IMG/VR virus record: IMGVR_UViG_2579778884_000013
Source: a virus
Taxonomy: Duplodnaviria > Heunggongvirae > Uroviricota > Caudoviricetes
Direction: 5' to 3' (one strand)
DNA length: 39,745 bases
The translations under genes and the position numbers were made by a program. Within the stretch, counting starts at the first letter, position 1. Each line of letters opens with the position of its first letter. Positions 3,151-34,548 of the stretch are shown in pieces. The notes beneath the pieces are model-generated. The model did no database searches and was not told the origin of the DNA. It saw nothing but the letters and a program-made list of their open reading frames with translations.

Positions 3151-5613
3151 TCAATTCCCTGTTAATTGCAAAACTTGCTCTTCCAGCTTTTTAACCCTGC
3201 GTCTCATCATCGCAGATTCCAGAATCAGAGCCTCTTCATAACGGATACCGTAACATTCACCAGCCTCGACGGCTTCGCGTACCAGAACCTTTGTCTGTAT
3301 AAGTGGGTAAACTCCTGCAGAATGCTCTTCTTCCGTCACATCCCTGTATTCTGCCGGGGTCTCATTCCACTTGTCATAACAGATAAATGCCAGTCGTGAC
3401 ACATCTATGCCTTCATTCTGAAATACACTGATAACATGCTGCGCAACTGCACCAAAGTGCCATCTTGCTCCGTCTTTACCTTTCACTTCGATCCTGTCAA
3501 GGTACTGGTATGAAACCCATTCCACTCTTTCCCATGCGTCCAGTATTTTCTCATCAATAACCTCTGGAGCAGTCTTGAAACGCGCATCGGACAGCACCGT
3601 AAACGCTGACTGGGTAAATCCCCCCGACCATGCACGACCAGCCAACCCAAGAGAATAAGTATTCGTTGTCGATGGTGTCATGGCTGAATCAGAAAACTGT
3701 ATATATTCTGAATTTCCAGTAGATATTCGAATATTTCCATTTATTAGCGACATAGTGCCTTTAGTATTATCACTATTGAATAATTTCAATTGCGAACTTA
3801 TACCGCCTCCCACAGCCAGAGATACATCGCCTTCAGCAAGCATTCTGAATTTATCTGCAGAAACAAGCGTCTGGTTAGCAAGGTTAAAATATTTAACCCA
3901 CCATTCAAAACGCCCTGACATAGTCCCAACGTACTGACCAAGCGCAGGGACGTGAACAACATTGCTATTTGTAGTGCCGTCTATACTGGAAATACCAGTC
4001 ACCGCTGATGCAGAACTCAGAATATTATTTCTGTCACCCGGATGTTTAATTTCAACAAAGTTCCTGATACACCCTTCCTCGAAGGTAACCACGCCGGAAG
4101 AACTATACATGGGGAATATTGACGCATAATTACTGCGTGCAGCATCTAAGAAACGAATGGTTGTAGATGTCTGCAGATCTCCTGATTCATTTTTCCCATC
4201 ACACCCAGTCATTAGAATATTACTGGCAATATTATTATTTCCCTGAACGGTGACTCCGTGCGCCTGCTTTGCGTCCGATTCAGAGTAATCAACCAGCACA
4301 TTCGAAATCAGGTTACCAGTCCCCTTGCCAACAACTACTGCGGCGTATTTTGGGTTGTTAGCCATTACACTGCTAATGATATTATTCGTTGGGGCAGTTT
4401 CCGTCTCAGTTCCATTGTAAACAACGTGCTTACACTCTTCACCAATAACATTGCTGACAATGTTATATTTTGCTGCTGTTTTAAGTTCCACTGCACCAAA
4501 CTGAGGATAATTTCTGGCTATCACACCATCAATTAGCGTATTTTGCGATGAATCAAAAAGCACACAACCTGCTTTTTTATTATTTGCGAACCCTAAATAC
4601 TCTCCTCTTATATCTCTAACAATGTAACCTGACGGAATACCATTATTCGGATAAGCGATCAAGCTAAATCCTGTTCCTCGCGTATTTGTAAATCTGATAT
4701 TTTTAACCGATACATCATGGCCACCTGAAAATGACACCTGGTGTCCCTGCACACTATCATCTGATTTATTTCCCATAATTGTTAGCGTACTAAGCATGCC
4801 ACCATCGGGCATGTTAAAAACCAGATGATTACCATCTCTGTCATACTGTTTTATCGTTCCCCCACCTGTTCCGTACAAGCCACAACGTGAAAGAGAAACT
4901 AAAGATGTATTGAATACCCCTTCCGGAACAAAAACACTGCTAAACGAATGTAATGATTTTGTAAAAGCATCCTTGTTATCATTTAAGATTCCATTTTGAG
5001 CTCCAAAATCCTTAATGCTGACACCATCACGCATCTTATCCTGGAACGTTCTGTATACCGCTCCAGAACCATACTGAATAAACCAACCAAAACCACCAAT
5101 AACTCCGGCGATTGCAGCATCGACATAATTACGCATTGAGCGATTATTTACAGCGTCCTGCTCAAGTGATGGATCGGCAAGGTTAGATATTCTGTTTTGC
5201 TTTGCATCGTAATATTTTGCAAGCAAAGATGGTTTCATCAATGCACGTCTGAACCACCCAAAACATCGCTGGATCAGCATCGTCAGGTAGTCAAATGCAT
5301 CCTCATGAACTTCGGGGAAAAATTTTCCCTGATTGCGAAGATCAGTCTCCTGCACCACATCAAGCACACGCTCTATCGTGATTCGCCAGCCAGCAGCAAG
5401 CGGCGACGGAAGAACCACTGCACCGCCACTATAAGTTCCCGCCCCTGTTACCGTATAACCAGCATCCAGCACTAGTTTTGTAACGTTACCGTTAAGGTCA
5501 GACACCTGAACAACCAGGTCGGATTTTTTGAAAATACGGAAGGTATACGGAAATGATGTCGTAACGCCGTTACCTGTGTATTCGTTGTGGTCAACTTCGG
5601 TTGAGACCGTCAT
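3151..5613 (-). CDS. Tailspike: T7 gp17-like N-terminal anchor, parallel beta-helix depolymerase-like centre, C-terminal intramolecular chaperone (peptidase S74-like)
   Basis: N-terminus YTGNGVTTSFPYTF...LVVQV resembles T7 tail-fibre N-domain; central repeats with N-x-I/V motifs; C-terminal LSDARFK (Ser about aa 675, nt about 3589-3591) then chaperone-like region; GGAG RBS. Confidence 0.85.
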   Translation of the reverse strand: MTVSTEVDHNEYTGNGVTTSFPYTFRIFKKSDLVVQVSDLNGNVTKLVLDAGYTVTGAGTYSGGAVVLPSPLAAGWRITIERVLDVVQETDLRNQGKFFPEVHEDAFDYLTMLIQRCFGWFRRALMKPSLLAKYYDAKQNRISNLADPSLEQDAVNNRSMRNYVDAAIAGVIGGFGWFIQYGSGAVYRTFQDKMRDGVSIKDFGAQNGILNDNKDAFTKSLHSFSSVFVPEGVFNTSLVSLSRCGLYGTGGGTIKQYDRDGNHLVFNMPDGGMLSTLTIMGNKSDDSVQGHQVSFSGGHDVSVKNIRFTNTRGTGFSLIAYPNNGIPSGYIVRDIRGEYLGFANNKKAGCVLFDSSQNTLIDGVIARNYPQFGAVELKTAAKYNIVSNVIGEECKHVVYNGTETETAPTNNIISSVMANNPKYAAVVVGKGTGNLISNVLVDYSESDAKQAHGVTVQGNNNIASNILMTGCDGKNESGDLQTSTTIRFLDAARSNYASIFPMYSSSGVVTFEEGCIRNFVEIKHPGDRNNILSSASAVTGISSIDGTTNSNVVHVPALGQYVGTMSGRFEWWVKYFNLANQTLVSADKFRMLAEGDVSLAVGGGISSQLKLFNSDNTKGTMSLINGNIRISTGNSEYIQFSDSAMTPSTTNTYSLGLAGRAWSGGFTQSAFTVLSDARFKTAPEVIDEKILDAWERVEWVSYQYLDRIEVKGKDGARWHFGAVAQHVISVFQNEGIDVSRLAFICYDKWNETPAEYRDVTEEEHSAGVYPLIQTKVLVREAVEAGECYGIRYEEALILESAMMRRRVKKLEEQVLQLTGN

Positions 5614-5717: not shown

Positions 5718-5732
5718 TTACCTTTCAGGTAA
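5718..5732. promoter_or_regulatory. Operator-like palindrome TTACC-N5-GGTAA (TTACCTTTCAGGTAA)
   Basis: Perfect 5-bp inverted half-sites with 5-bp spacer, in divergent intergenic region between tailspike and SOS-controlled small gene; same motif recurs at least 11 more times. Confidence 0.5.
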
Positions 5733-5787: not shown

Positions 5788-5809
5788 TTATTGCATGGAG
5801 AAGATTAAG

Positions 5810-6067
5810 ATGCAGCAGTATCACTATCCACTGGAAGAGGGATTTACCGAAAGGATTCACACGCCGGGAGGCGTCAGGTCACTGGTGGAGGGATCGCACT
5901 TGATGAAATTACTCCGGGATCTCGATAAGGATGGATTTAATGTCGATGGCCCACTTGCCGAACTGACTGCACTGATTAACTACGTCACCAGCTCACAGAT
6001 GTCTATGCAGGATCTGCAAACACATCTCGACTATTGTGCCGAACAATTACGAAAACAAACCAGATAA
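5810..6067 (+). CDS. Small SOS-controlled protein, paralog of C-terminal domain of adjacent AntA-like protein; candidate small antirepressor
   Basis: GGAG RBS 9 nt upstream of ATG 5810 (alternative ATG 5795 lacks RBS); aligns with C-terminus of 6385..7041 product (LMKLLRDLDKDGFNVDGPLAELT vs [24 protein letters not shown]; DLQTHLDY vs DIQTHAEY). Confidence 0.6.
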   Translation: MQQYHYPLEEGFTERIHTPGGVRSLVEGSHLMKLLRDLDKDGFNVDGPLAELTALINYVTSSQMSMQDLQTHLDYCAEQLRKQTR

Positions 6068-6098
6068 GGTTTGAAATTACCAAATGGAGTGCTTATAT

Positions 6099-6113
6099 TT
6101 ACCTTTGCGGTAA
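6099..6113. promoter_or_regulatory. Operator-like palindrome TTACC-N5-GGTAA (TTACCTTTGCGGTAA)
   Basis: Perfect half-sites; lies between small SOS gene and AntA-like gene. Confidence 0.45.
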
Positions 6114-6203
6114 ATTTACATCGCACTCCTCTTGTGCCATAGTAATCGGGCACTGGCAAAATCCAGTGCCGGGATTGGTCTCCCGGATTACTAAGTGGCG
6201 CAT

Positions 6204-6227
6204 ACCACGCCAGACGTGGTTTTTTTA
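6204..6227 (+). terminator. Rho-independent terminator after small SOS gene
   Basis: Stem ACCACG/CGTGGT with 5-nt loop followed by T7 run. Confidence 0.5.
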
Positions 6228-6384
6228 TGCGTATAGCACAGTCATGCCAGAATTATGGTGGGCTGAATGGGGGTCCGAAAGGACGCCGGTACCACTTAGG
6301 CCGGTAAGACCAACTCCGTTCAGTTCACCACCATCTGATTGGTCTCAGCGGTGGTGATGTAATTCGCTAAGTGGAGACGCCATC

Positions 6385-7041
6385 ATGAACGCTCAACTCA
6401 TCCCCGTATTCAACGGCACTATATCTAACGAAACAGCCCTACTTTGTAATGCCCGCGATCTGCACGCTTTTTTAGGTGTTAAAAAGGTGTTTGCAGCATG
6501 GATTACAAATCGCATATCAGAATACGAATTCATTGAAAATCAAGACTATATTTTGCTTTCCAATTTGGGAAAGCAAACATCTGGTAGAGGCGGCCACAAC
6601 CGCAAAGAGTACCACCTCACCCTTGATACAGCCAAAGAGCTGGCGATGGTCGAGCGTAACGAAAAAGGTCGCCAGGTGCGACGCTACTTCATTGAATGCG
6701 AGAAACGTTTAAGACAACAAGAAACAAAAGTGGAGAAGGTCTTGTCAGGCTTCATGCCCGCCATTATGGAGGCGATCAAGCTGGAAGACAAAAAAGAATA
6801 CAGTGCCCCACTGAAGCCCGGCTACCGCAGCCTGATTCACTCGCCGTCTGGTGTTCTCGGCCTGACGGAGAACTCACTGCTGATGAATCTGCTGAACCAG
6901 TTACAGGACGACGGGCACGACGTATCGGGCGCGGCGGCGGAGCTGACCACCATGTTCTGCTACATCGTTGGTGTGAGCAAATGCCTGCGTGATATCCAGA
7001 CGCACGCGGAGTACATCAACGACAAGGCAGGGTTCTTCTGA
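6385..7041 (+). CDS. AntA-family antirepressor-like protein with C-terminal domain shared with small SOS protein
   Basis: N-terminal region [32 protein letters not shown] resembles AntA/AntB antirepressor domain; GGAG RBS 8 nt upstream. Confidence 0.7.
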
Positions 7042-7085
7042 CGGGCGGCGGCACAGGGATGTGCCTTTAAATAATTCTGTACAGA

Positions 7086-7128
7086 TTGCAGACTGGGGGT
7101 GAATAGCGTACTATTACCTCAAGGGTAA
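7086..7128 (+). promoter_or_regulatory. Candidate sigma70 promoter (TTGCAG-17-TACTAT) with operator-like palindrome TTACCTCAAGGGTAA (7114-7128) at -10/+1
   Basis: -35/-10 hexamers with 17-bp spacer; palindrome starts at last base of -10; 60 nt upstream of 210-aa gene. Confidence 0.45.
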
Positions 7129-7187
7129 GAAAGCATTTTTAATCTTCCCTTCAAAACGCGTCCTGTAGCCAAACATGGGAGGACGAA

Positions 7188-7820
7188 ATGAGAACAAATA
7201 CAACAAGAAAAGCGATGCCATACATTATCCCAGAAGCAGATTTCGATAGAAAACTGAACATGTCTGAGAAGAACACTAGTCACACCGAAAGCTACTTAGC
7301 GAAAGGTGTGGTTGATTTCGTTCTTCCGGGATTCACAACACCTTATGGTTATCGCCTTGTAAAATCTTGTAATGGCGATCATTACAGAATGATTACTACC
7401 AGCGATACTCCAGAAACGGTGTATGCGGTTAAGTTAATCTTTCGGGAAGATATCGTCGAAGCCAAAAGAACATGTACGCAGATCATGGTATGGCGTACGC
7501 CTAATGTTATTCATGACCGTGCTGTTCATGGTTTGCCTCAGATTTTTTTTCAGTTCTTCCTAGAGCAATATGCGATCGTTGTATCTGATGAGCAACAAAC
7601 AATCGATGGGAGAAGATTCTGGGAAAGAATGATTTCTTGGGCTATAAACACCCCAGGATATAATGTATACGTTTCAGATGGCTCTGAAGAAGATAGACCT
7701 CTTAGCTTCATGACATCATGGGATGATTTCTATAGCCAGTGGGCTGATTTCTGTTGGGGCAGTGATAAAGATGTGCATACCCACAGACTACTGGTTATAA
7801 GCAAAGATAAACTGCATTAA
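7188..7820 (+). CDS. Hypothetical 210-aa cytoplasmic protein, no family recognised (orphan accessory gene)
   Basis: Strong GGGAGG RBS 5 nt upstream; own promoter/operator and terminator; appears AT-rich by eye relative to neighbours; no TM or signal peptide. Confidence 0.6.
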   Translation: MRTNTTRKAMPYIIPEADFDRKLNMSEKNTSHTESYLAKGVVDFVLPGFTTPYGYRLVKSCNGDHYRMITTSDTPETVYAVKLIFREDIVEAKRTCTQIMVWRTPNVIHDRAVHGLPQIFFQFFLEQYAIVVSDEQQTIDGRRFWERMISWAINTPGYNVYVSDGSEEDRPLSFMTSWDDFYSQWADFCWGSDKDVHTHRLLVISKDKLH

Positions 7821-7824
7821 TAGA

Positions 7825-7846
7825 AGCCCGCAGCGCGGGCTTTTTT
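7825..7846 (+). terminator. Rho-independent terminator after 210-aa gene
   Basis: GCCCGC-CAGC-GCGGGC stem-loop followed by TTTTTT. Confidence 0.65.
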
Positions 7847-7918: not shown

Positions 7919-8080
7919 ATGAAAAAAGCATTTGCTGCACTGTTCGTTTTGTTGTCTCTGGTAGCTTCAACTCAGGCCTTTGCCGGTCGTTGTCAGCACG
8001 ACAGCGACACTGCTGCTGACGGCTCCCGCTGCGGTGGGCGTTCTGCGGATTCCCGCCCGGGTGGCGGTGGCATTCGTTAA
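7919..8080 (+). CDS. Possible small secreted peptide (53 aa) in GC-rich segment; alternatively a structured RNA
   Basis: Signal peptide MKKAFAALFVLLSLVASTQAFA then Gly/Arg/Cys-rich 31 aa; weak RBS; 9-bp hairpin at 7986-8008 inside ORF. Confidence 0.3.
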   Translation: MKKAFAALFVLLSLVASTQAFAGRCQHDSDTAADGSRCGGRSADSRPGGGGIR

Positions 8081-8111: not shown

Positions 8112-8492
8112 TCACGCAACGCAATTATTACCGCGCCATGTAACATTTTTAATAATCTTATCAGCACCAAACTCAACGTAAACAGAGCAACTGAAATGGA
8201 GTGTATAACCGCCATCAGTTGTTGCGTATGTGTTTGAATATATAGTATTACCAATTAGATTAGACGTAGTATTATACGTTGTGGTTTGTGGTACGTTATA
8301 ACTACCAGAGCTTGAGTAAACATACACTCTGTTTCCATCTGGAGATGTAAGCTCTCCCTGAGGATACCCCCACTGCTGAACCATTGCGTCTATACTCTGC
8401 CCGCGCCACGTAAGCATATTTCTTTCAAACTGTGCAGCTGACTGGCATCCAACGAGAAGCATAAATCCAAAAATCAAAAATACTTTTCTCAT
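8112..8492 (-). CDS. Lipoprotein of unknown function (Ser/Thr/Asn/Tyr-rich mature domain); candidate lysogenic-conversion or superinfection-exclusion gene
   Basis: Signal peptide MRKVFLIFGFMLLVGC with lipobox LVGC; AGGGG RBS 5 nt upstream of ATG 8492; own terminator; encoded within accessory island between late genes. Confidence 0.6.
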   Translation of the reverse strand: MRKVFLIFGFMLLVGCQSAAQFERNMLTWRGQSIDAMVQQWGYPQGELTSPDGNRVYVYSSSGSYNVPQTTTYNTTSNLIGNTIYSNTYATTDGGYTLHFSCSVYVEFGADKIIKNVTWRGNNCVA

Positions 8493-8539
8493 AATTACCC
8501 CTATCATGGAAAAACAGCACCAATCCACAAATTAACTAG

Positions 8540-8728
8540 TTATTTTATTATTCTTCCGAACAATACAATTCCTAATACTACAAAGCCGAACCATGCCGCT
8601 GCACGCAACAGAGATTCCAATTGAAACCCATTTTTATCAAAATGTATGAATAGCATAAAAACGCTGCACATATTAGTACAATAAAAGTTATTTGAACCAT
8701 CATATCTCCTTTTATTGCGGAGTGACAT
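8540..8728 (-). CDS. Possible small membrane protein (62 aa)
   Basis: Start overlaps stop of upstream ejection-protein gene; C-terminal hydrophobic segment AAAWFGFVVLGIVLFG; AT-rich; weak support. Confidence 0.3.
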   Translation of the reverse strand: MSLRNKRRYDGSNNFYCTNMCSVFMLFIHFDKNGFQLESLLRAAAWFGFVVLGIVLFGRIIK

Positions 8729-11186
8729 CCTGTGGTCGCCACCAGTATGTCTGGTTAAACTCTTTCTTCGAACGTTGCTCCATTTTACGCAAATAGCCTG
8801 GTGAAAAATACTCCTGCATCTGGTTAAAGATCATGTGATCGAGAGCCGCCTTCAAGTACCAGAGATTCGCACCAGGCATCAAACCTTTCCCCAGCTTCAC
8901 CAGATCACCACCAGTCTGCTCACTCTTCCCTTCCACAGCATTTAACGGTATGCCCTGAGCAATCTTCACTACGTCATCAACCAGACCAGCTACCGGGCCA
9001 AGCATCGACGCCAGCGCGCCGCTTCCGTACCTAGTGTGATCTGACAATAAAAAGTCACCGTAAAGGCCAAGACCACCACCTTTCAGTAGAGCACCAAGCC
9101 AAAATTTAGCAGCATCTTCTCCTGTCATCTCGCGAGGATTACGACCAGACGCAAGGTCGTTAAGTTGCTGCGACAAAGCGCCAAGAATGGTCGTACTGGC
9201 AATAAACGTCGCAATATATGCCGCACGCCCACCAGCAGACGGCATACCCATAGCGCGTGACCAGTGACGCATAACCACCGAGATAGGGAACGATTTAAAC
9301 AGGAAAACACTTCTCGTTAATTCACCTTTCCATGTTCCACGCTGAATACCAGAACCGGTTATCAGTTGCTCACGTGCTCCCGGTGTAATAACAGCCATAT
9401 CAACTTCTTCAGTTACGGCACCGAGCAGTTTACGCATTGCCTCAAATTTCACGCGTTCAGGCTCACCAAGATGTTTAACTGCTGAATCAGGGATACGCAT
9501 AATGCTTTCCGGTGTCAGCATCGTATTATTGCCGTTCCCCCAGTCCTCCTGTTGCGCCAGCTTCCATACGCTCCAGTCTGTGTCAGTAATCCCTTTGCTT
9601 TTCAGGATACGAAAATCAGAATCATCGAGGCTACGAAGGTCTGGTGTCCGTGACACTACTTCTCCCAAGCTTCCCATCATGGTTACGCCATAGGCGCGCT
9701 TGTGCGCATCTGACCATGCTGTAAGCCCACTGGCACGCATTACCGCCGTTGCAGCCCAACGAGACACAGACGGCCCCATATTATCCATCGCCCAGCGGTT
9801 AACGCTGCCAAGTAGAGATTCCATCGCCAGACCAGCGCGGCGCGCCCGCGCAAGTTCTGTACGGTTCGTTGGGTCCATAGCTTCAAGCTGGTTGCGGAAT
9901 AACTGGTTCATTGGAAGGTTGGTAACCTTCGCAGACAGATACATGGTTCCAAGATCAGAGAACGATGACAGCAACGCGGATCCGAGTCTGCTGGCAACCA
10001 GCCAGTTGCGGATATTGTCAGACCATCGCGCGATGTGCGGATTCGCTACAGGCTGTGTCTTTCCGGAAATAAAGTTGTACAGATTCTCTGTGTTGTTCGC
10101 CAGCCGCTCGACTTTACCGGTTTTACTCGGGTTAGCTGTTGCCGTTTCTGCCTTCACCTGATCAAGAAGAGAGCGGAAAACATGATCGGGGTTTGGGCCA
10201 TATGTTTCCACCAGTGCAATATCTTTACTGATACCTTCCAGGTGACCGACCATGATTTCCCATAGAGAGCGATCGCCATAAAGTTGCTGATATTGAAGAT
10301 AGGAATCTGCATCTTTGAAATGTATCTGTCGTGATGCATTACCACGGTTAGCACGTGCGCCGGAAATTCGCATTCCGGTATCAGTAAGCTTATTCAACCC
10401 ACCAGTAGCGATCGTGTTATAAGCCTCTCCAAGAAATGCAGACAACTCGGCATCGTTCATCAGTTGTCCATCGGCTCGGGTATAATATTTGCGATCCAGC
10501 TTACCTATAACATCGCTAACCCATTTATCTTTTGATACCGCCCCAACCTTTTCCATAGAATGATGTTGAGGGATCCCCCAGTTTTCGAGATAGCCAATGT
10601 CCCCACCAGCATCATTAAACCGGCGGCGCAGCAGCTCTGTAACTTCTCTCCACGCCTTAGCACCTTTTCTTGCTTTAGCATTGCCAGTATTTTGCCCCCG
10701 CATTTCATATACCAGGTCACGTACGCCAGCTTCATCTTCAAACAGACCAAAAAAGCGAGGATCAACTGCTTCGAATGCCTCCTGCAATTGACTCAATGCA
10801 TAATCACGGGTGGCTTTTGTTCTGGATTCAACAGAGAGGAAATTCGATTTACCGTCTGCATTAAAAGCAATAGTACGGTTAAGAGCGCCAAGTTTCCCAT
10901 CAGCCCCTTGATAGCTATTGATAAATTTATCCAATCTCTGACGTGCGGCTATAGTGAGGGCCACACGACGTTTCTTTAATGCCGCTTCTCGCTGTAATTC
11001 TTCAGATGCCAATTGTGCTGCACGATATAGCCGCTCTGATTCGGAAAGTTGTCTCCACGACATCGGGTCATCACGAGCAATAGAGCGCATATTTCGATAA
11101 ATGCGGTCTTCAATGTTCTGTATTTCTCGCGCCGTTAACGTGCGCTGCGCCGCCTGCTGGACCGCTTGTATACATTCCTGTCTCAT
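8712..11186 (-). CDS. Large internal virion (ejection/core) protein, T7 gp16-position
   Basis: 824 aa; AGAGG RBS; C-terminal hydrophobic/Gly-rich segments; position between tail-tube genes and tailspike. Confidence 0.6.
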   Translation of the reverse strand: MRQECIQAVQQAAQRTLTAREIQNIEDRIYRNMRSIARDDPMSWRQLSESERLYRAAQLASEELQREAALKKRRVALTIAARQRLDKFINSYQGADGKLGALNRTIAFNADGKSNFLSVESRTKATRDYALSQLQEAFEAVDPRFFGLFEDEAGVRDLVYEMRGQNTGNAKARKGAKAWREVTELLRRRFNDAGGDIGYLENWGIPQHHSMEKVGAVSKDKWVSDVIGKLDRKYYTRADGQLMNDAELSAFLGEAYNTIATGGLNKLTDTGMRISGARANRGNASRQIHFKDADSYLQYQQLYGDRSLWEIMVGHLEGISKDIALVETYGPNPDHVFRSLLDQVKAETATANPSKTGKVERLANNTENLYNFISGKTQPVANPHIARWSDNIRNWLVASRLGSALLSSFSDLGTMYLSAKVTNLPMNQLFRNQLEAMDPTNRTELARARRAGLAMESLLGSVNRWAMDNMGPSVSRWAATAVMRASGLTAWSDAHKRAYGVTMMGSLGEVVSRTPDLRSLDDSDFRILKSKGITDTDWSVWKLAQQEDWGNGNNTMLTPESIMRIPDSAVKHLGEPERVKFEAMRKLLGAVTEEVDMAVITPGAREQLITGSGIQRGTWKGELTRSVFLFKSFPISVVMRHWSRAMGMPSAGGRAAYIATFIASTTILGALSQQLNDLASGRNPREMTGEDAAKFWLGALLKGGGLGLYGDFLLSDHTRYGSGALASMLGPVAGLVDDVVKIAQGIPLNAVEGKSEQTGGDLVKLGKGLMPGANLWYLKAALDHMIFNQMQEYFSPGYLRKMEQRSKKEFNQTYWWRPQDVTPQ

Positions 11187-33444: not shown

Positions 33445-33675
33445 TCATGAGTAGAAGAAGTATGCCAGTTCCGCTTTTGAGCGCAGCCATTGTCTTGTTT
33501 TACAGGCTTTAAAAAGCCCATTCATCAATACCTTACCTGGCATTTTGCGCTTACCTGTTAAGTGAGTCTGGATATAGTGACTCGTCGTTCCGGCTTCCTG
33601 TGCGAAGGCTTCACGCTCATCCGGAGTAAGTGCAAGCCAGTGCTTTTTGAAATCGAAATGTCCGTTATCGCTCAT
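33445..33675 (-). CDS. Cro-like HTH regulator
   Basis: Divergent from repressor gene; HTH segment REAFAQEAGTTSHYIQTHLTGKRKMPGK; first gene of - strand early operon. Confidence 0.6.
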   Translation of the reverse strand: MSDNGHFDFKKHWLALTPDEREAFAQEAGTTSHYIQTHLTGKRKMPGKVLMNGLFKACKTRQWLRSKAELAYFFYS

Positions 33676-33711: not shown

Positions 33712-33774
33712 TCACCCATAAGGTAACAAAAATCAAGGATAGTTACCTATGAGGTGCATTTACCTGTTGGGTAA
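33712..33774. promoter_or_regulatory. Tripartite operator cluster between cro-like and repressor genes
   Basis: Three 15-bp sites: TCACCCATAAGGTAA (33712-33726), TTACCTATGAGGTGC (33743-33757), TTACCTGTTGGGTAA (33760-33774). Confidence 0.6.
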
Positions 33775-33829: not shown

Positions 33830-34414
33830 ATGAAAAGTATCCAGGACGTCCGCAGGCAAAATCTCAACGACTTGATCGACCGTGAATTCAATGGTGTTCA
33901 GACGCGGATGGCAGAAAAACTTGGAACTCAGGCAAATCTGGTAAACCGCTGGGCTCTTGGAAAGAAGGTTATCGGCGACCAGGTTGCGCGAAAAATTGAA
34001 GCTGCCGCCAATAAACCCCGTAACTGGCTTGATATCGATCGCTCGCTTTCTCAGGAAGGTTTTCAGCCTGTCGGCCCAAGCGACATTGGTCAGCTGGCGG
34101 CTCACAACCTGGAACGCTGGATGAGCGAAAGCCGCGACCTTTCAACGCAGGGAAAACTACACCGCGCATCCGGCGTCGCCCAGGTGACAATCAGCCGCCT
34201 GTTAAACAATGAAGTCAGCGTTTCCATTTCCACCCTGGAGAATGTTGCATCCGCATTCGGGCGTCACGGCTATGAATTACTGATTCACCCGCACGACCCT
34301 GCGACTATCAACTATGATCGCTCGCGCTACGCATTGTTACCTGAAACAGAGAAGGCAAAGATCGAAAGTTACATTGAATTTGTCATCAACCAGAACGAAA
34401 AAAGAAAACAATAA
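33830..34414 (+). CDS. Prophage repressor with two XRE-type HTH domains and no S24 peptidase domain
   Basis: Two HTH-like segments (TRMAEKLGTQANLVNRWALGKK and HRASGVAQVTISRLLNNEVSVS); no Ala-Gly ... Ser ... Lys autocleavage module; divergent from cro-like gene across operators. Confidence 0.7.
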   Translation: MKSIQDVRRQNLNDLIDREFNGVQTRMAEKLGTQANLVNRWALGKKVIGDQVARKIEAAANKPRNWLDIDRSLSQEGFQPVGPSDIGQLAAHNLERWMSESRDLSTQGKLHRASGVAQVTISRLLNNEVSVSISTLENVASAFGRHGYELLIHPHDPATINYDRSRYALLPETEKAKIESYIEFVINQNEKRKQ

Positions 34415-34471: not shown

Positions 34472-34548
34472 TTACCTTATGGGTAATTTTTTTAACTCAT
34501 ATCTATTGACATCAAACCAGATACGCATAATTATTACCTCAACGGTAA
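34472..34548 (+). promoter_or_regulatory. Early-left promoter region with two operator-like palindromes flanking a TTGACA -35 hexamer
   Basis: TTACCTTATGGGTAA (34472-34486), TTGACA at 34506-34511, -10-like CATAAT/AATTAT around 34526-34534, TTACCTCAACGGTAA (34534-34548) at -10/+1. Confidence 0.5.

Follow-up and report, generated by a model that had tools for sequence, protein, structure and literature searches.

An exchangeable cargo slot with a predicted repressor operator in epsilon15-like prophages of Escherichia coli, and a 210-aa candidate counter-defence gene carried in it

Morons are accessory genes that sit between conserved genes and bring a promoter and a terminator of their own; the concept reportedly arose from comparisons of HK97 and HK022, and the classical expectation is that such genes are expressed from the repressed prophage. 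In the immI region of phages P1 and P7, a c4 antisense RNA is followed by icd and ant, and the operators controlled by C1 are dispersed in P1. The acr-aca loci and the anti-defence genes of plasmid leading regions are switched on at entry, when repressor is absent, and are then shut at an operator overlapping their promoter. The GNATs (GCN5-related N-acyltransferases) of mobile elements include AcrVA5, and mom is under translational control (Com/mom).

We analysed a 210-aa ORF in a window of 39,745 nucleotides (the whole stretch of DNA under study, IMG/VR record IMGVR_UViG_2579778884_000013), an E. coli prophage of the epsilon15/phiV10 type (Uetakevirus). The locus resembles morons in that an AT-rich insert, dispensable in sister phages, lies between backbone genes and has a promoter at one end and an intrinsic terminator at the other. 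Unlike in morons, the promoter, operator and terminator of the slot are backbone common to many cargos, only the leader and the ORF being exchanged, and the promoter bears a predicted operator of the prophage repressor. A C4 RNA and its target upstream of ant are shared with P1/P7 immI (RF01695, RF03163), as is, with P1, the use of a single repressor whose operators, predicted ones here, are scattered genome-wide to control ant and accessory genes; the operator here is a palindrome of 15–17 bp, whereas that of P1 is an asymmetric 17-mer. The likeness to acr-aca and leading-region genes is one of working only (small, solitary, accessory genes that occur on diverse mobile elements and have an operator-overlapped promoter), the repressor here being the main lysogeny repressor of the phage and not a dedicated Aca; the 210-aa protein has no homology to known anti-defence proteins and is a candidate for such a role only. 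From the GNATs AcrVA5, Mom and TacT/AtaT/KacT it differs in having no sequence-level match, a non-canonical pyrophosphate-binding motif and extra helices at residues 107–127. With the cargo hotspots reported in P2-like prophages and in P4-like satellites (bioRxiv 10.1101/2021.01.21.427644), the slot shares a fixed backbone position, sharp borders and many mostly unannotated cargos; unlike the hotspots in that description, it belongs to Uetakevirus, lies downstream of ant, holds short cargos of 0.6–0.9 kb and itself supplies an operator-controlled promoter, and no scanned slot cargo credibly matches a known defence family.

The slot and its exchangeable cargos

An earlier note on this DNA had placed the 210-aa ORF between the ejection genes and the tailspike gene. 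It does lie in the interval between the tailspike gene (3151–5613, minus strand) and the gene for an 824-aa virion protein (8712–11186, minus strand), where a plus-strand module is placed, but its immediate neighbours are an AntA-type antirepressor gene (6385–7041) and a gene for a 53-aa secreted protein (7919–8080). The features of the module up to the end of the slot are as follows.

6071–6113, plus strand: immI/Ant promoter TTGAAA-17-TATATT (6071–6099) with predicted operator TTACCTTTGCGGTAA (6099–6113), from promoter and operator scans
6137–6335, plus strand: P1-type c4 system upstream of ant (Rfam)
6137–6189, plus strand: a1/b1 target of the c4 system (Rfam, below gathering score)
6150–6226, plus strand: isrK (Rfam, 67.7 bits, above gathering)
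6251–6335, plus strand: C4 antisense RNA (Rfam, 61.2 bits, above gathering)
6385–7041, plus strand: AntA/Bro-N-type antirepressor gene, the left backbone of the slot (PF08346, 4e-26; phrog_377)
7051–7066, plus strand: hairpin GGCACAgggaTGTGCC 3' of the ant stop codon, then UUUAAAUAAUU; kept in all slot variants
7086–7114, plus strand: putative slot promoter, TTGCAG (7086–7091), 17-nt spacer and TACTAT (7109–7114); conserved backbone, not cargo
7114–7128, no strand assigned: predicted repressor operator TTACCTCAAGGGTAA, exact TTACC-N5-GGTAA, starting on the last base of the -10 element
7129–7824, plus strand: cargo segment, a 5' leader carrying a Shine-Dalgarno sequence of its own, then the ORF, 40.9% GC (slot alignments)
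7188–7820, plus strand: ORF of 210 aa (24.6 kDa, pI 6.0, soluble; PHROG 1349), ATG start and double stop TAA-TAG
7822–7846, plus strand: intrinsic terminator, stem 7822–7831/7835–7844 and U-tract to 7846 (folding)

The cargo here is an AT-rich segment of 696 bp, and different E. coli prophages fill the slot with unrelated cargos, of which there are at least seven. When seven prophages and phages with seven different cargos were aligned, the breakpoints coincided, the left one exactly after the GGTAA of the operator and the right one at the terminator hairpin, which from 7825 on is conserved backbone. The slot flanks were found in 478 of 5426 complete E. coli genomes (about 9%), and the 210-aa gene was the cargo in 93. 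The locus thus shows two marks of a moron or cargo cassette, namely replacement in close relatives with conserved flanks (93 against 478 genomes) and promoter and terminator flanks around a segment of deviant composition, and the neighbourhood comparison that had been proposed for related prophages gave conserved flanks with the cargo swapped at identical breakpoints. The impression by eye that the gene is AT-rich was borne out by the GC content of the ORF, 40.8% against 48.7% for the window, which falls in the 2nd percentile of equal-sized windows; its GC3 was 37%, against 60% in Ant.

Most of the alternative cargos were small-plus-large gene pairs resembling toxin-antitoxin pairs, one of them with a YafO-family toxin. 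PADLOC gave no credible match for 10 alternative cargo proteins, the single match being a weak one to Cas8b (E = 0.009), and nothing on the slot was found in the literature. Because the promoter, operator and terminator are common to at least seven unrelated cargos, they are, to judge from the alignments, conserved borders of the slot and not the gene's own. The self-contained unit that the earlier note had described is therefore real in that a promoter and a terminator are present and that the leader with its Shine-Dalgarno sequence belongs to the cargo, but the promoter, operator and terminator go with the slot backbone.

Operator, slot promoter, leader and terminator

The palindrome at 7114–7128, described earlier as an operator-like site, turned out to be an exact copy of a phage repressor operator motif with 5-bp arms, TTACC and GGTAA, and a 5-nt spacer. 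TTACCn5GGTAA occurred at 14 sites in the window (with at most one mismatch) against 0.59 expected, and none of 100 shuffles reached 14. The epsilon15 genome has 15 copies against 0.58 expected, 7 of which are sites annotated as 'protein_bind repressor, lysogeny' in its record. In the window, the operators at 33712 and 33760 lie between a cro-like gene and an HTH repressor gene, and those at 34472 and 34534 lie just downstream of the latter. The operator is also found at late operons (terminase, portal). At the strong Ant promoter the -10 element likewise ends on the first T of TTACC, and a third site of like geometry is the promoter TTGACA-17-AATTAT beside the repressor gene. On sequence grounds, we regard the palindrome as a genuine Uetakevirus repressor operator; a literature search for an epsilon15 operator consensus found no match. 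Experiments on the related phage ZX5 have demonstrated the roles of repressor and antirepressor (PMC9782041). The trans-acting partner proposed here and the elements of the leader are listed below.

33830–34414, plus strand: gene for a 194-aa HTH repressor, the putative trans-acting partner of the operator
7159–7185, plus strand: possible RBS-sequestering hairpin, CGUCCU (7159–7164) with AGGACG (7180–7185)
7177–7182, plus strand: Shine-Dalgarno sequence GGGAGG, 5 nt 5' of the ATG

A promoter whose -10 element abuts the operator had also been proposed. The arrangement is as described, the palindrome starting on the last base of the -10 element, but the promoter is weak, with matches at 7 of 12 consensus positions, is absent from the list of the consensus promoter scanner and, taken alone, is not above chance. 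The TTG-17-TACTAT pattern with the operator is kept in a lambdoid copy despite a diverged spacer, and in one slot variant 7 bp are missing between the proposed -35 and -10 elements. Alternatively, cargo transcripts might arise by read-through from the ant promoter; the hairpin at 7051–7066 past ant is a weak terminator at best.

Both the ribosome-binding site GGGAGG and the clean terminator noticed before were confirmed. The terminator hairpin folds at -16.7 kcal/mol (z = -3.4) and none of 200 shuffles folded as well; the promoter/terminator scanner did not list it at 7822–7846. In the leader, a hand-drawn anti-SD helix was paired in 75% of cells, compared with about 45% after sliding, and it cannot show covariation because the Shine-Dalgarno sequence is invariant. 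RNAalifold gave no consensus structure for the leaders, and neither the cargo nor the Serratia-type leader had an Rfam match.

Since a true copy of the operator sits where bound repressor would occlude the -10 element and +1, we infer on good grounds that the gene is silent in the lysogen and on when repressor is absent. The operator is a sign of 'off in lysogen' and not of 'immediate-early', because the late operons also carry it. Of the earlier claim that the gene is silent in the lysogen and switched on immediately at induction or infection, the operator at -10/+1 supports the silent half and does not speak for immediate expression.

The protein family, its carriers and its predicted fold

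The ORF had been called an orphan, which it is not: it matches PHROG 1349 (function not annotated) at E = 3e-113, with residues 1–210 on profile positions 1–210, and a profile search gathered 913 family representatives (clusters at 50% identity). A set of 63 close homologues had 25 invariant columns in common, which marks the ORF as a real gene under selection. The view that no family can be recognised held for characterised families, the ORF having no match in Pfam, NCBIfam, PADLOC (0 families of PADLOC-DB v2) or PDB sequence searches. PDB sequence searches with the protein and two profiles gave noise only, and in a broad-profile homologue search all of the names were 'hypothetical' or 'phage protein'. 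Pfam searches of 136 diverse relatives returned fusion partners only (an MqsA N-terminal Zn ribbon, DUF5397 and a weak SRA), the SRA-like fusion being confined to one relative and scoring below the Pfam cut-off. The protein has no transmembrane segment (maximum KD19 1.05), as had been stated, and neither its accession nor PHROG 1349 was matched in the literature.

Carriers of the family include temperate phages, phage-plasmids, plasmids and a jumbo phage, and the gene is carried singly, with tandem paralogues on some contigs. The member in the jumbo phage, a Burkholderia phage of 227 kb, was found at 2.8e-35, and structural relatives occur in other large phages. Classical moron sites that hold a homologue lie after the lambdoid lysis cassette and between the genes for the tail chaperone and the tape measure. 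Because these lambdoid and siphovirus copies sit in late-operon moron sites under different control, expression on entry is not a rule for the whole family. The copies in lambdoid prophages are without the cognate repressor and without any other operator copy. Homologues in Serratia prophages adjoin P22-type Ant plus Arc, where a palindrome ACAACn4GTTGT occurs as a single copy in the 12.6-kb locus, and others lie near a KilA-N gene or a Rha gene. Across about 20 homologue contexts there was no conserved neighbour gene, and no small partner or antitoxin gene was seen beside the ORF or its homologues in the contexts examined. P1 had no relative of the gene at E ≤ 1e-3, and no P1 C1 operator was found near the P1-like homologue.

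The fold check that the earlier note had suggested gave a remote GNAT-like predicted fold, but a Foldseek search against PDB yielded nothing significant, including no solved GNAT; the best match had E = 0.027 and a TM of about 0.3, and KacT, AtaT and TacT3 were among the weak structural matches (E ≥ 0.03). None of the 136 family members matched a GNAT Pfam model, and hhalign of the family profile against one bona fide GNAT gave a probability of 1.3%. A strand-loop-helix, I-V-V-S-D134-x-x-Q-T-x-x-G-R-R-F144-W145, is conserved family-wide, and two helices (107–127) lie between a four-stranded sheet and the putative beta4. The conserved loop DEQQTIDGRRFW, which reads S-D134-E-Q-Q137-T138-I-D-G141-R-R143-F-W, does not, as judged by inspection only, fit the pattern Q/R-x-x-G-x-G/A of motif A, which in GNATs lies in the beta4-alpha3 loop and binds the CoA pyrophosphate, since the G stands four residues past Q137 (Q-T-x-x-G) and not three, and there is no second G/A.

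Possible functions of the gene

The best overall explanation, to which we give a probability of about 0.4, is that the gene is a cargo of a repressor-wired slot with a counter-defence or host-takeover function. In the lysogen, the 194-aa HTH repressor would sit on the operator and keep the cargo off, as it would ant and other phage promoters; when repressor is absent, at entry into a naive cell or at induction, the cargo would be transcribed, its translation possibly damped by the hairpin that pairs with the Shine-Dalgarno sequence. The 210-aa protein would then act on a cytoplasmic host or defence target and favour the incoming or induced element, either by binding or by acyl transfer from a GNAT-like core centred on the conserved strand-loop-helix. 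The functional step, which we infer, is the weakest part of this explanation. That the carriers range from phages, phage-plasmids and plasmids to a jumbo phage speaks for a role of use to the mobile element.

The gene could instead protect the lysogen or the infected cell from other phages as a defence or superinfection-exclusion gene, a possibility that we take seriously while thinking it rather unlikely. The slot behaves like a cargo hotspot with at least seven alternatives, many of them toxin-antitoxin-like, a pattern that suits defence cargo no less than other kinds, and hotspots of P2 and P4 prophages are reported to carry antiviral systems (bioRxiv 10.1101/2021.01.21.427644). The lambdoid and plasmid copies without the cognate repressor would be constitutive, and one relative has an added SRA-like DNA-reader domain of the sort seen in type IV restriction enzymes, although this weak match concerns one protein only and is below the Pfam cut-off. 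A gene whose operator overlaps -10/+1 should, however, be off in the lysogen, PADLOC has no credible match for this cargo or the 10 alternative cargo proteins, the protein has no recognisable effector domain, and the family reaches into the 227-kb jumbo phage, with structural relatives in other large phages. A further candidate role is that of a lone GNAT-type toxin or killer in abortive infection, comparable to TacT, AtaT and KacT, for which the weak matches to KacT, AtaT and TacT3 and the YafO-family toxin in the same slot of other phages could be cited. Those matches are not significant and no GNAT Pfam model matches, no antitoxin gene adjoins the family in any context examined, such as the RHH/DUF1778 gene that shares an operon with the toxin in TacAT, AtaRT and KacAT, and a lone toxin is disfavoured because lambdoid prophages and plasmids stably carry the gene by itself and lack the cognate repressor; of the readings considered here, we find this one the least probable.

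A special case of counter-defence would be a Mom-like transferase of GNAT fold that modifies phage DNA or RNA against restriction. The predicted fold and the weak SRA-like fusion in one relative agree with this reading, and the possible SD-occluding hairpin recalls the translational control of mom. Mom itself, a GNAT, modifies adenine in DNA by means of Gly-tRNA and is encoded by a tightly controlled accessory gene (PMC13219725). Homology to Mu Mom was nonetheless rejected (hhalign probability 0.4%, nothing by BLASTP), the Mom family PF25680 (catalytic R111 and S124) was matched by Mu Mom at 2e-75 but by neither the 210-aa protein nor any of its relatives, and no solved GNAT was significant in Foldseek-PDB, which makes the reading quite improbable. 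Slightly less probable again is an accessory regulator of lysis and lysogeny that would partner Ant and might, for instance, modify or stabilise the repressor or antirepressor: the gene comes immediately downstream of the c4/ant module and has homologues near P22-type Ant plus Arc, a KilA-N gene and a Rha gene, but sister prophages with the same Ant carry unrelated cargos in its place, and homologues occur far from antirepressors in P1-like elements, lambdoid late regions, plasmids and the jumbo phage.

A bolder form of the counter-defence explanation, which we regard as unlikely, is that a new and widespread GNAT-like family on mobile elements disarms host immunity by acylating a defence protein or nucleic acid, delivered here from a repressor-wired socket that fires at entry or induction and is silent in the lysogen, and that the other unannotated cargos are further genes for counter-defence or inter-phage warfare.

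Returning to the slot cargo with a counter-defence or host-takeover role, the way in which regulation is laid out is familiar, and the gene is a good, if unproven, candidate for helping the phage against host defences. If the explanation is true, about 9% of complete E. coli genomes would hold a precisely bounded cargo slot whose backbone supplies promoter, operator and terminator, and with at least seven cargos, none of those examined having a known function, the slot would be a compact hunting ground for new genes of phage-host conflict. Its two conserved borders would offer a simple experimental entry point for swapping or deleting cargos, and an unannotated family of 913 clusters at 50% identity would be placed in a regulatory context and given a lead to its structure, in the form of a GNAT-like core whose loop D-x2-Q-T-x2-G-x2-F-W is conserved.

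The 210-aa gene and its phage

The sequence features described in the earlier note for the 210-aa gene were confirmed with few changes. The ORF spans 7188-7820 on the plus strand with a GGGAGG ribosome-binding site 5 nt before its ATG, and it is AT-rich, at 40.8% GC compared with 48.7% in the whole window (2nd percentile) and with a GC3 of 37% against 60% in the upstream antirepressor gene ant. The protein has no hydrophobic segment, in line with the reported lack of a transmembrane segment, and searches of Pfam, NCBIfam, PADLOC and PDB sequences likewise returned no recognised family. The terminator is a hairpin (7822-7844) followed by a U-tract (-16.7 kcal/mol, z = -3.4). With 6 G-C pairs, a 3-nt loop and 6 U (7822-7846), it fits the stated rule of the promoter/terminator scanner yet was missed by it, so negatives from this scanner are to be taken with care. 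The proposed promoter, TTGCAG (7086)-17-TACTAT (7109-7114), is present, but it matches only 7 of 12 consensus positions and was not listed by the consensus scanner.

The window represents a prophage of the podovirus genus Uetakevirus, of the epsilon15/phiV10 type. Around the gene, the DNA shares 99-100% identity with prophages of many E. coli chromosomes, and its flanks match phages TL-2011b, phiv142-3, phiV10 and ZX5.

Features around the 210-aa gene
3151-5613, minus: tailspike, 820 aa, epsilon15-type N-terminus and endosialidase-chaperone C-terminus
5795-6067, plus: 90-aa ORF (phrog_450, 3.5e-48; phrog_1760 'anti-repressor', 5e-7)
6137-6189, plus: c4 a1/b1 target (Rfam, just below gathering score)
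6150-6226, plus: isrK (Rfam 67.7 bits, above gathering score)
6251-6335, plus: C4 antisense RNA (Rfam 61.2 bits, above gathering score)
6385-7041, plus: ant, AntA/Bro-N-type antirepressor gene
7188-7820, plus: 210-aa gene
7919-8080, plus: 53-aa secreted protein with signal peptide (phrog_14503 'membrane associated protein')
8112-8528, minus: 138-aa lipoprotein-like ORF
8712-11186, minus: 824-aa protein (PHROG 'virion structural protein')

With an operator-controlled promoter (6071-6099) on their left and ant on their right, the isrK, C4 RNA and c4 target elements form a P1/P7-type immI module inside a Uetakevirus, and the site of the 210-aa gene is directly behind this module. The match of the 90-aa ORF is confined to the C-terminal part of antirepressors and resembles the C-terminus of the 218-aa Ant; the ORF also has an operator copy to itself, at 5718. 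It may encode an Ant C-domain that stands alone or is a remnant. The 53-aa and 138-aa products may be further accessory genes of the region. In the prophage of E. coli strain E8 (L028 1-32), the annotation places a TacA-family antitoxin gene immediately 5' of the Bro-N antirepressor gene and overlapping its start, which suggests a GNAT-toxin toxin-antitoxin module near immI in that prophage.

A shared cargo slot under probable repressor control

The promoter, operator and terminator had been taken as the gene's own, but all three belong to a slot common to other cargos, as judged from the breakpoints in an alignment of the window and TL-2011b with five E. coli prophages carrying other genes at this position. 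On the left, the sequences match from the 3' end of ant onward, across a hairpin (7051-7066), TTGCAG, TACTAT and a palindrome, and part exactly after GGTAA (7128). On the right, the match restarts exactly at AGCCCGCnnnGCGGGCTTTTTT (7825) and runs on into the gene for the 53-aa secreted protein, which is kept to the right of the slot in all variants. The palindrome arms are constant in all slot variants and the 5-nt spacer is variable; in one variant whose upstream region has diverged, the arms still keep their register with a -10-like TAAAAT. In one variant, 7 bp are missing between TTGCA and the -10, which counts against the -35 assignment, and the cargo may instead be transcribed from the ant promoter by read-through of the weak 7051-7066 hairpin. 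The slot flanks were found in 478 of 5426 complete E. coli genomes, 93 with the 210-aa cargo.

Alternative cargos of the slot
59-aa protein and YafO-family toxin
DUF4760 protein
55-aa and 146-aa proteins
62-aa and 110-aa proteins
72-aa and 125-aa proteins
108-aa protein and DUF2335 membrane protein

Most of these (L002, L025-L030) consist of a small ORF (55-108 aa) followed or overlapped by a larger one (110-182 aa), a layout typical of toxin-antitoxin pairs, which they look like. Ten alternative cargo proteins gave no credible PADLOC match (one weak Cas8b, E = 0.009) and no known family except DUF4760, DUF2335 and the YafO annotation. In PHROGs, all those scanned were of 'unknown function' bar the DUF2335 protein, a moron/host-takeover 'membrane protein'. 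Morons or cargo cassettes in prophage hotspots are a known kind of element, to which the 210-aa gene belongs; our literature search found no published description of the slot architecture or the protein family.

The operator-like site noted earlier proved to be a genuine operator, TTACCTCAAGGGTAA at 7114-7128, one of 14 copies of TTACC-N5-GGTAA in the window with up to one mismatch (0.59 expected; 0 shuffles reach 14). The copies are at 5486, 5718, 6099, 7114, 24788, 27915, 27933, 31343, 31405, 33375, 33712, 33760, 34472 and 34534. Those at 33712 and 33760 separate a cro-like gene (33445-33675, minus) from the gene for a 194-aa protein with an HTH_3 match at 1e-9 (33830-34414, plus), and those at 34472 and 34534 flank a TTGACA-17-AATTAT promoter just past the latter gene; the spacing is exactly 62 bp both in this pair and in 31343/31405. 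Epsilon15 has the palindrome 15 times (0.58 expected), with 7 of the 15 given in GenBank as 'protein_bind: repressor, lysogeny'. At 34534, 6099 (the strong ant promoter TTGAAA-17-TATATT, detected by the scanner) and 7114, the -10 ends on the palindrome's first T, so that a bound repressor would mask the -10/+1 region. In the window, operators are also found ahead of the terminase and portal operons (minus strand), as they are in epsilon15, and from this distribution the repressor appears to touch nearly every phage promoter.

In the related Uetakevirus ZX5, transcription of lytic genes was lost on over-expression of the repressor, and the antirepressor promoted lytic development (PMC9782041). 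Given these data and a genuine operator over the -10/+1 region, we can soundly infer that the gene is off in the lysogen, as had been proposed; the proposed immediate-early expression is not supported, since the terminase and portal operons have operators in front of them as well.

The site recurs upstream of lambdoid copies of the gene, where TTGgct-17-TACTAT and TTACCcagaaGGTAA are retained despite a diverged spacer. In phage LLS (L020/L039 42020-42140) and an Enterobacter prophage (L031), the Uetakevirus -10 and operator read TACTAT/TACCcagaaGGTAA. The repressor of LLS is unrelated, and the exact palindrome occurs nowhere else in that phage; therefore, the -10 and operator travelled with the gene. 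They may be left over from a transfer out of a Uetakevirus or may allow cross-control by a co-resident Uetakevirus prophage.

Protein family and predicted fold

The protein had been called an orphan, but it matches PHROG 1349 end to end (3e-113) and has many relatives. Its 63 close relatives in Enterobacterales share 25 invariant residues, and a profile search of 1.84 billion representatives gave 913 hits with E <= 1e-3, of which 276 reach E <= 1e-10; almost all are ~200 aa long. Across 136 diverse members, Y79, W102, D134, F144, W145 and I204 are at least 90% conserved, and N29, Q98, R103, Q137, T138, G141, Y161, W190 and G191 strongly so. No member matches Pfam, fusion partners aside. Fusions are rare (P0153, P0146, P0135, P0141) and add a Zn ribbon of the MqsA type at the N-terminus (3e-20), DUF5397 at the C-terminus (2.5e-7), an N-terminal SRA/YDG-like domain with a weak, below-cut-off score (E = 0.002) or an unmatched N-terminal region of 300 aa.

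Contexts of relatives
Serratia siphovirus prophages: between tail chaperone and tape-measure genes, beside P22-type Ant and Arc
P1-like phage-plasmids: opposite strand, between baseplate genes and a Sit-like transglycosylase
Lambdoid phages (phage LLS, Enterobacter prophages): after the lysis cassette
Large plasmids: Shewanella, Aeromonas, Pantoea and others
Phage-like metagenomic contigs: sometimes tandem paralogues
Burkholderia phage BCSR5 (227 kb): hmmsearch 2.8e-35

In the phages, phage-plasmids, plasmids and metagenomic contigs examined, relatives were always solitary, with no conserved partner gene. Tandem members lie 15-50 nt apart (L011 851-2148; L012 4186-5480; L015-L017 1587-2807; hmmsearch 1e-34 to 1e-67), and all of 20 diverse IMG/VR homologues have their own strong terminator directly 3'.

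An AF2 model from 37 sequences (pLDDT 80, pTM 0.76) gave no significant Foldseek match in the PDB (best E = 0.027, TM ~0.3, in a list of mostly GNATs). The best BFVD matches were uncharacterised ~190-aa phage proteins, such as one of Agrobacterium phage Atu_ph07 (E = 1e-9 to 4e-7), followed by NAT_SF/acyl-CoA N-acyltransferase proteins (E = 5e-5 to 2e-3). In the model, the C-terminal half comprises strand 129-132, the conserved loop SDEQQTIDGRRFW, helix 139-154, strand 159-163, helix 178-189 and strand 201-205, an order that would resemble GNAT beta4-alpha3-beta5-alpha4-beta6. The loop differs from the canonical GNAT motif Q/R-x-x-G-x-G/A. We call the predicted fold only 'remotely GNAT-like' and leave the protein outside the GNATs. 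Mom of phage Mu is a GNAT that modifies DNA via Gly-tRNA (PMC13219725); kinship with it was rejected, the two being unrelated at the sequence level.

Leader RNA and possible function

Diverse homologues carry a CUCC/GUCCU element 12-15 nt upstream of an invariant GGAGGAC Shine-Dalgarno (SD) sequence, with which it can pair. In the window, CGUCCU (7159-7164) pairs with AGGACG (7180-7185) in a helix within the minimum-free-energy fold. The pairing is found in 75% of cells compared with ~45% when the partner is slid; covariation is impossible because the SD does not vary, and RNAalifold found no consensus structure in the leaders. The element is a possible extra control of the gene. Serratia/Yersinia-type homologues (L067, L073, L075, L076, L078, L080) have a terminator-like hairpin and U-tract ~60-90 nt upstream of the ATG, with stems that vary by lineage yet are self-complementary (GCCGAAGC/GCTTCGGC, GCCGAAAC/GTTTCGGC, CCGAA/TTCGG, TCGAAA/TTTCGA). 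Just after their promoter is a palindrome whose symmetry is kept by paired changes (ACAAC..GTTGT versus ATAAC..GTTAT). These could be an attenuator and a lineage-specific operator, and the leader has no Rfam match.

The main rival to a function for the element's own benefit is that the 210-aa gene is a defence gene, in favour of which are the likeness of the slot to defence hotspots of prophages and the toxin-antitoxin-like look of its other cargos. The spread over phages, phage-plasmids, plasmids and a jumbo phage, the lack of a partner gene and the tolerance of the unrepressed gene point weakly to action that benefits the element. Less likely are a Mom-like modifier, a helper of Ant and a lone toxin; with the unrelated repressor of LLS, the gene is presumably not repressed in the lambdoid host, and this speaks against toxicity of the protein by itself.

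The analysis establishes the slot with its borders, the operator's identity, the terminator, and the protein family with its range. It supports and sharpens the regulatory part of the earlier interpretation, the operator being real and part of a shared slot. In the lysogen, the 194-aa HTH repressor probably silences the cargo, which would be expressed when the repressor is absent. The functional half we put forward as a hypothesis, in which the 210-aa protein may act in the cytoplasm on a host or defence target, to the benefit of the element that carries it.
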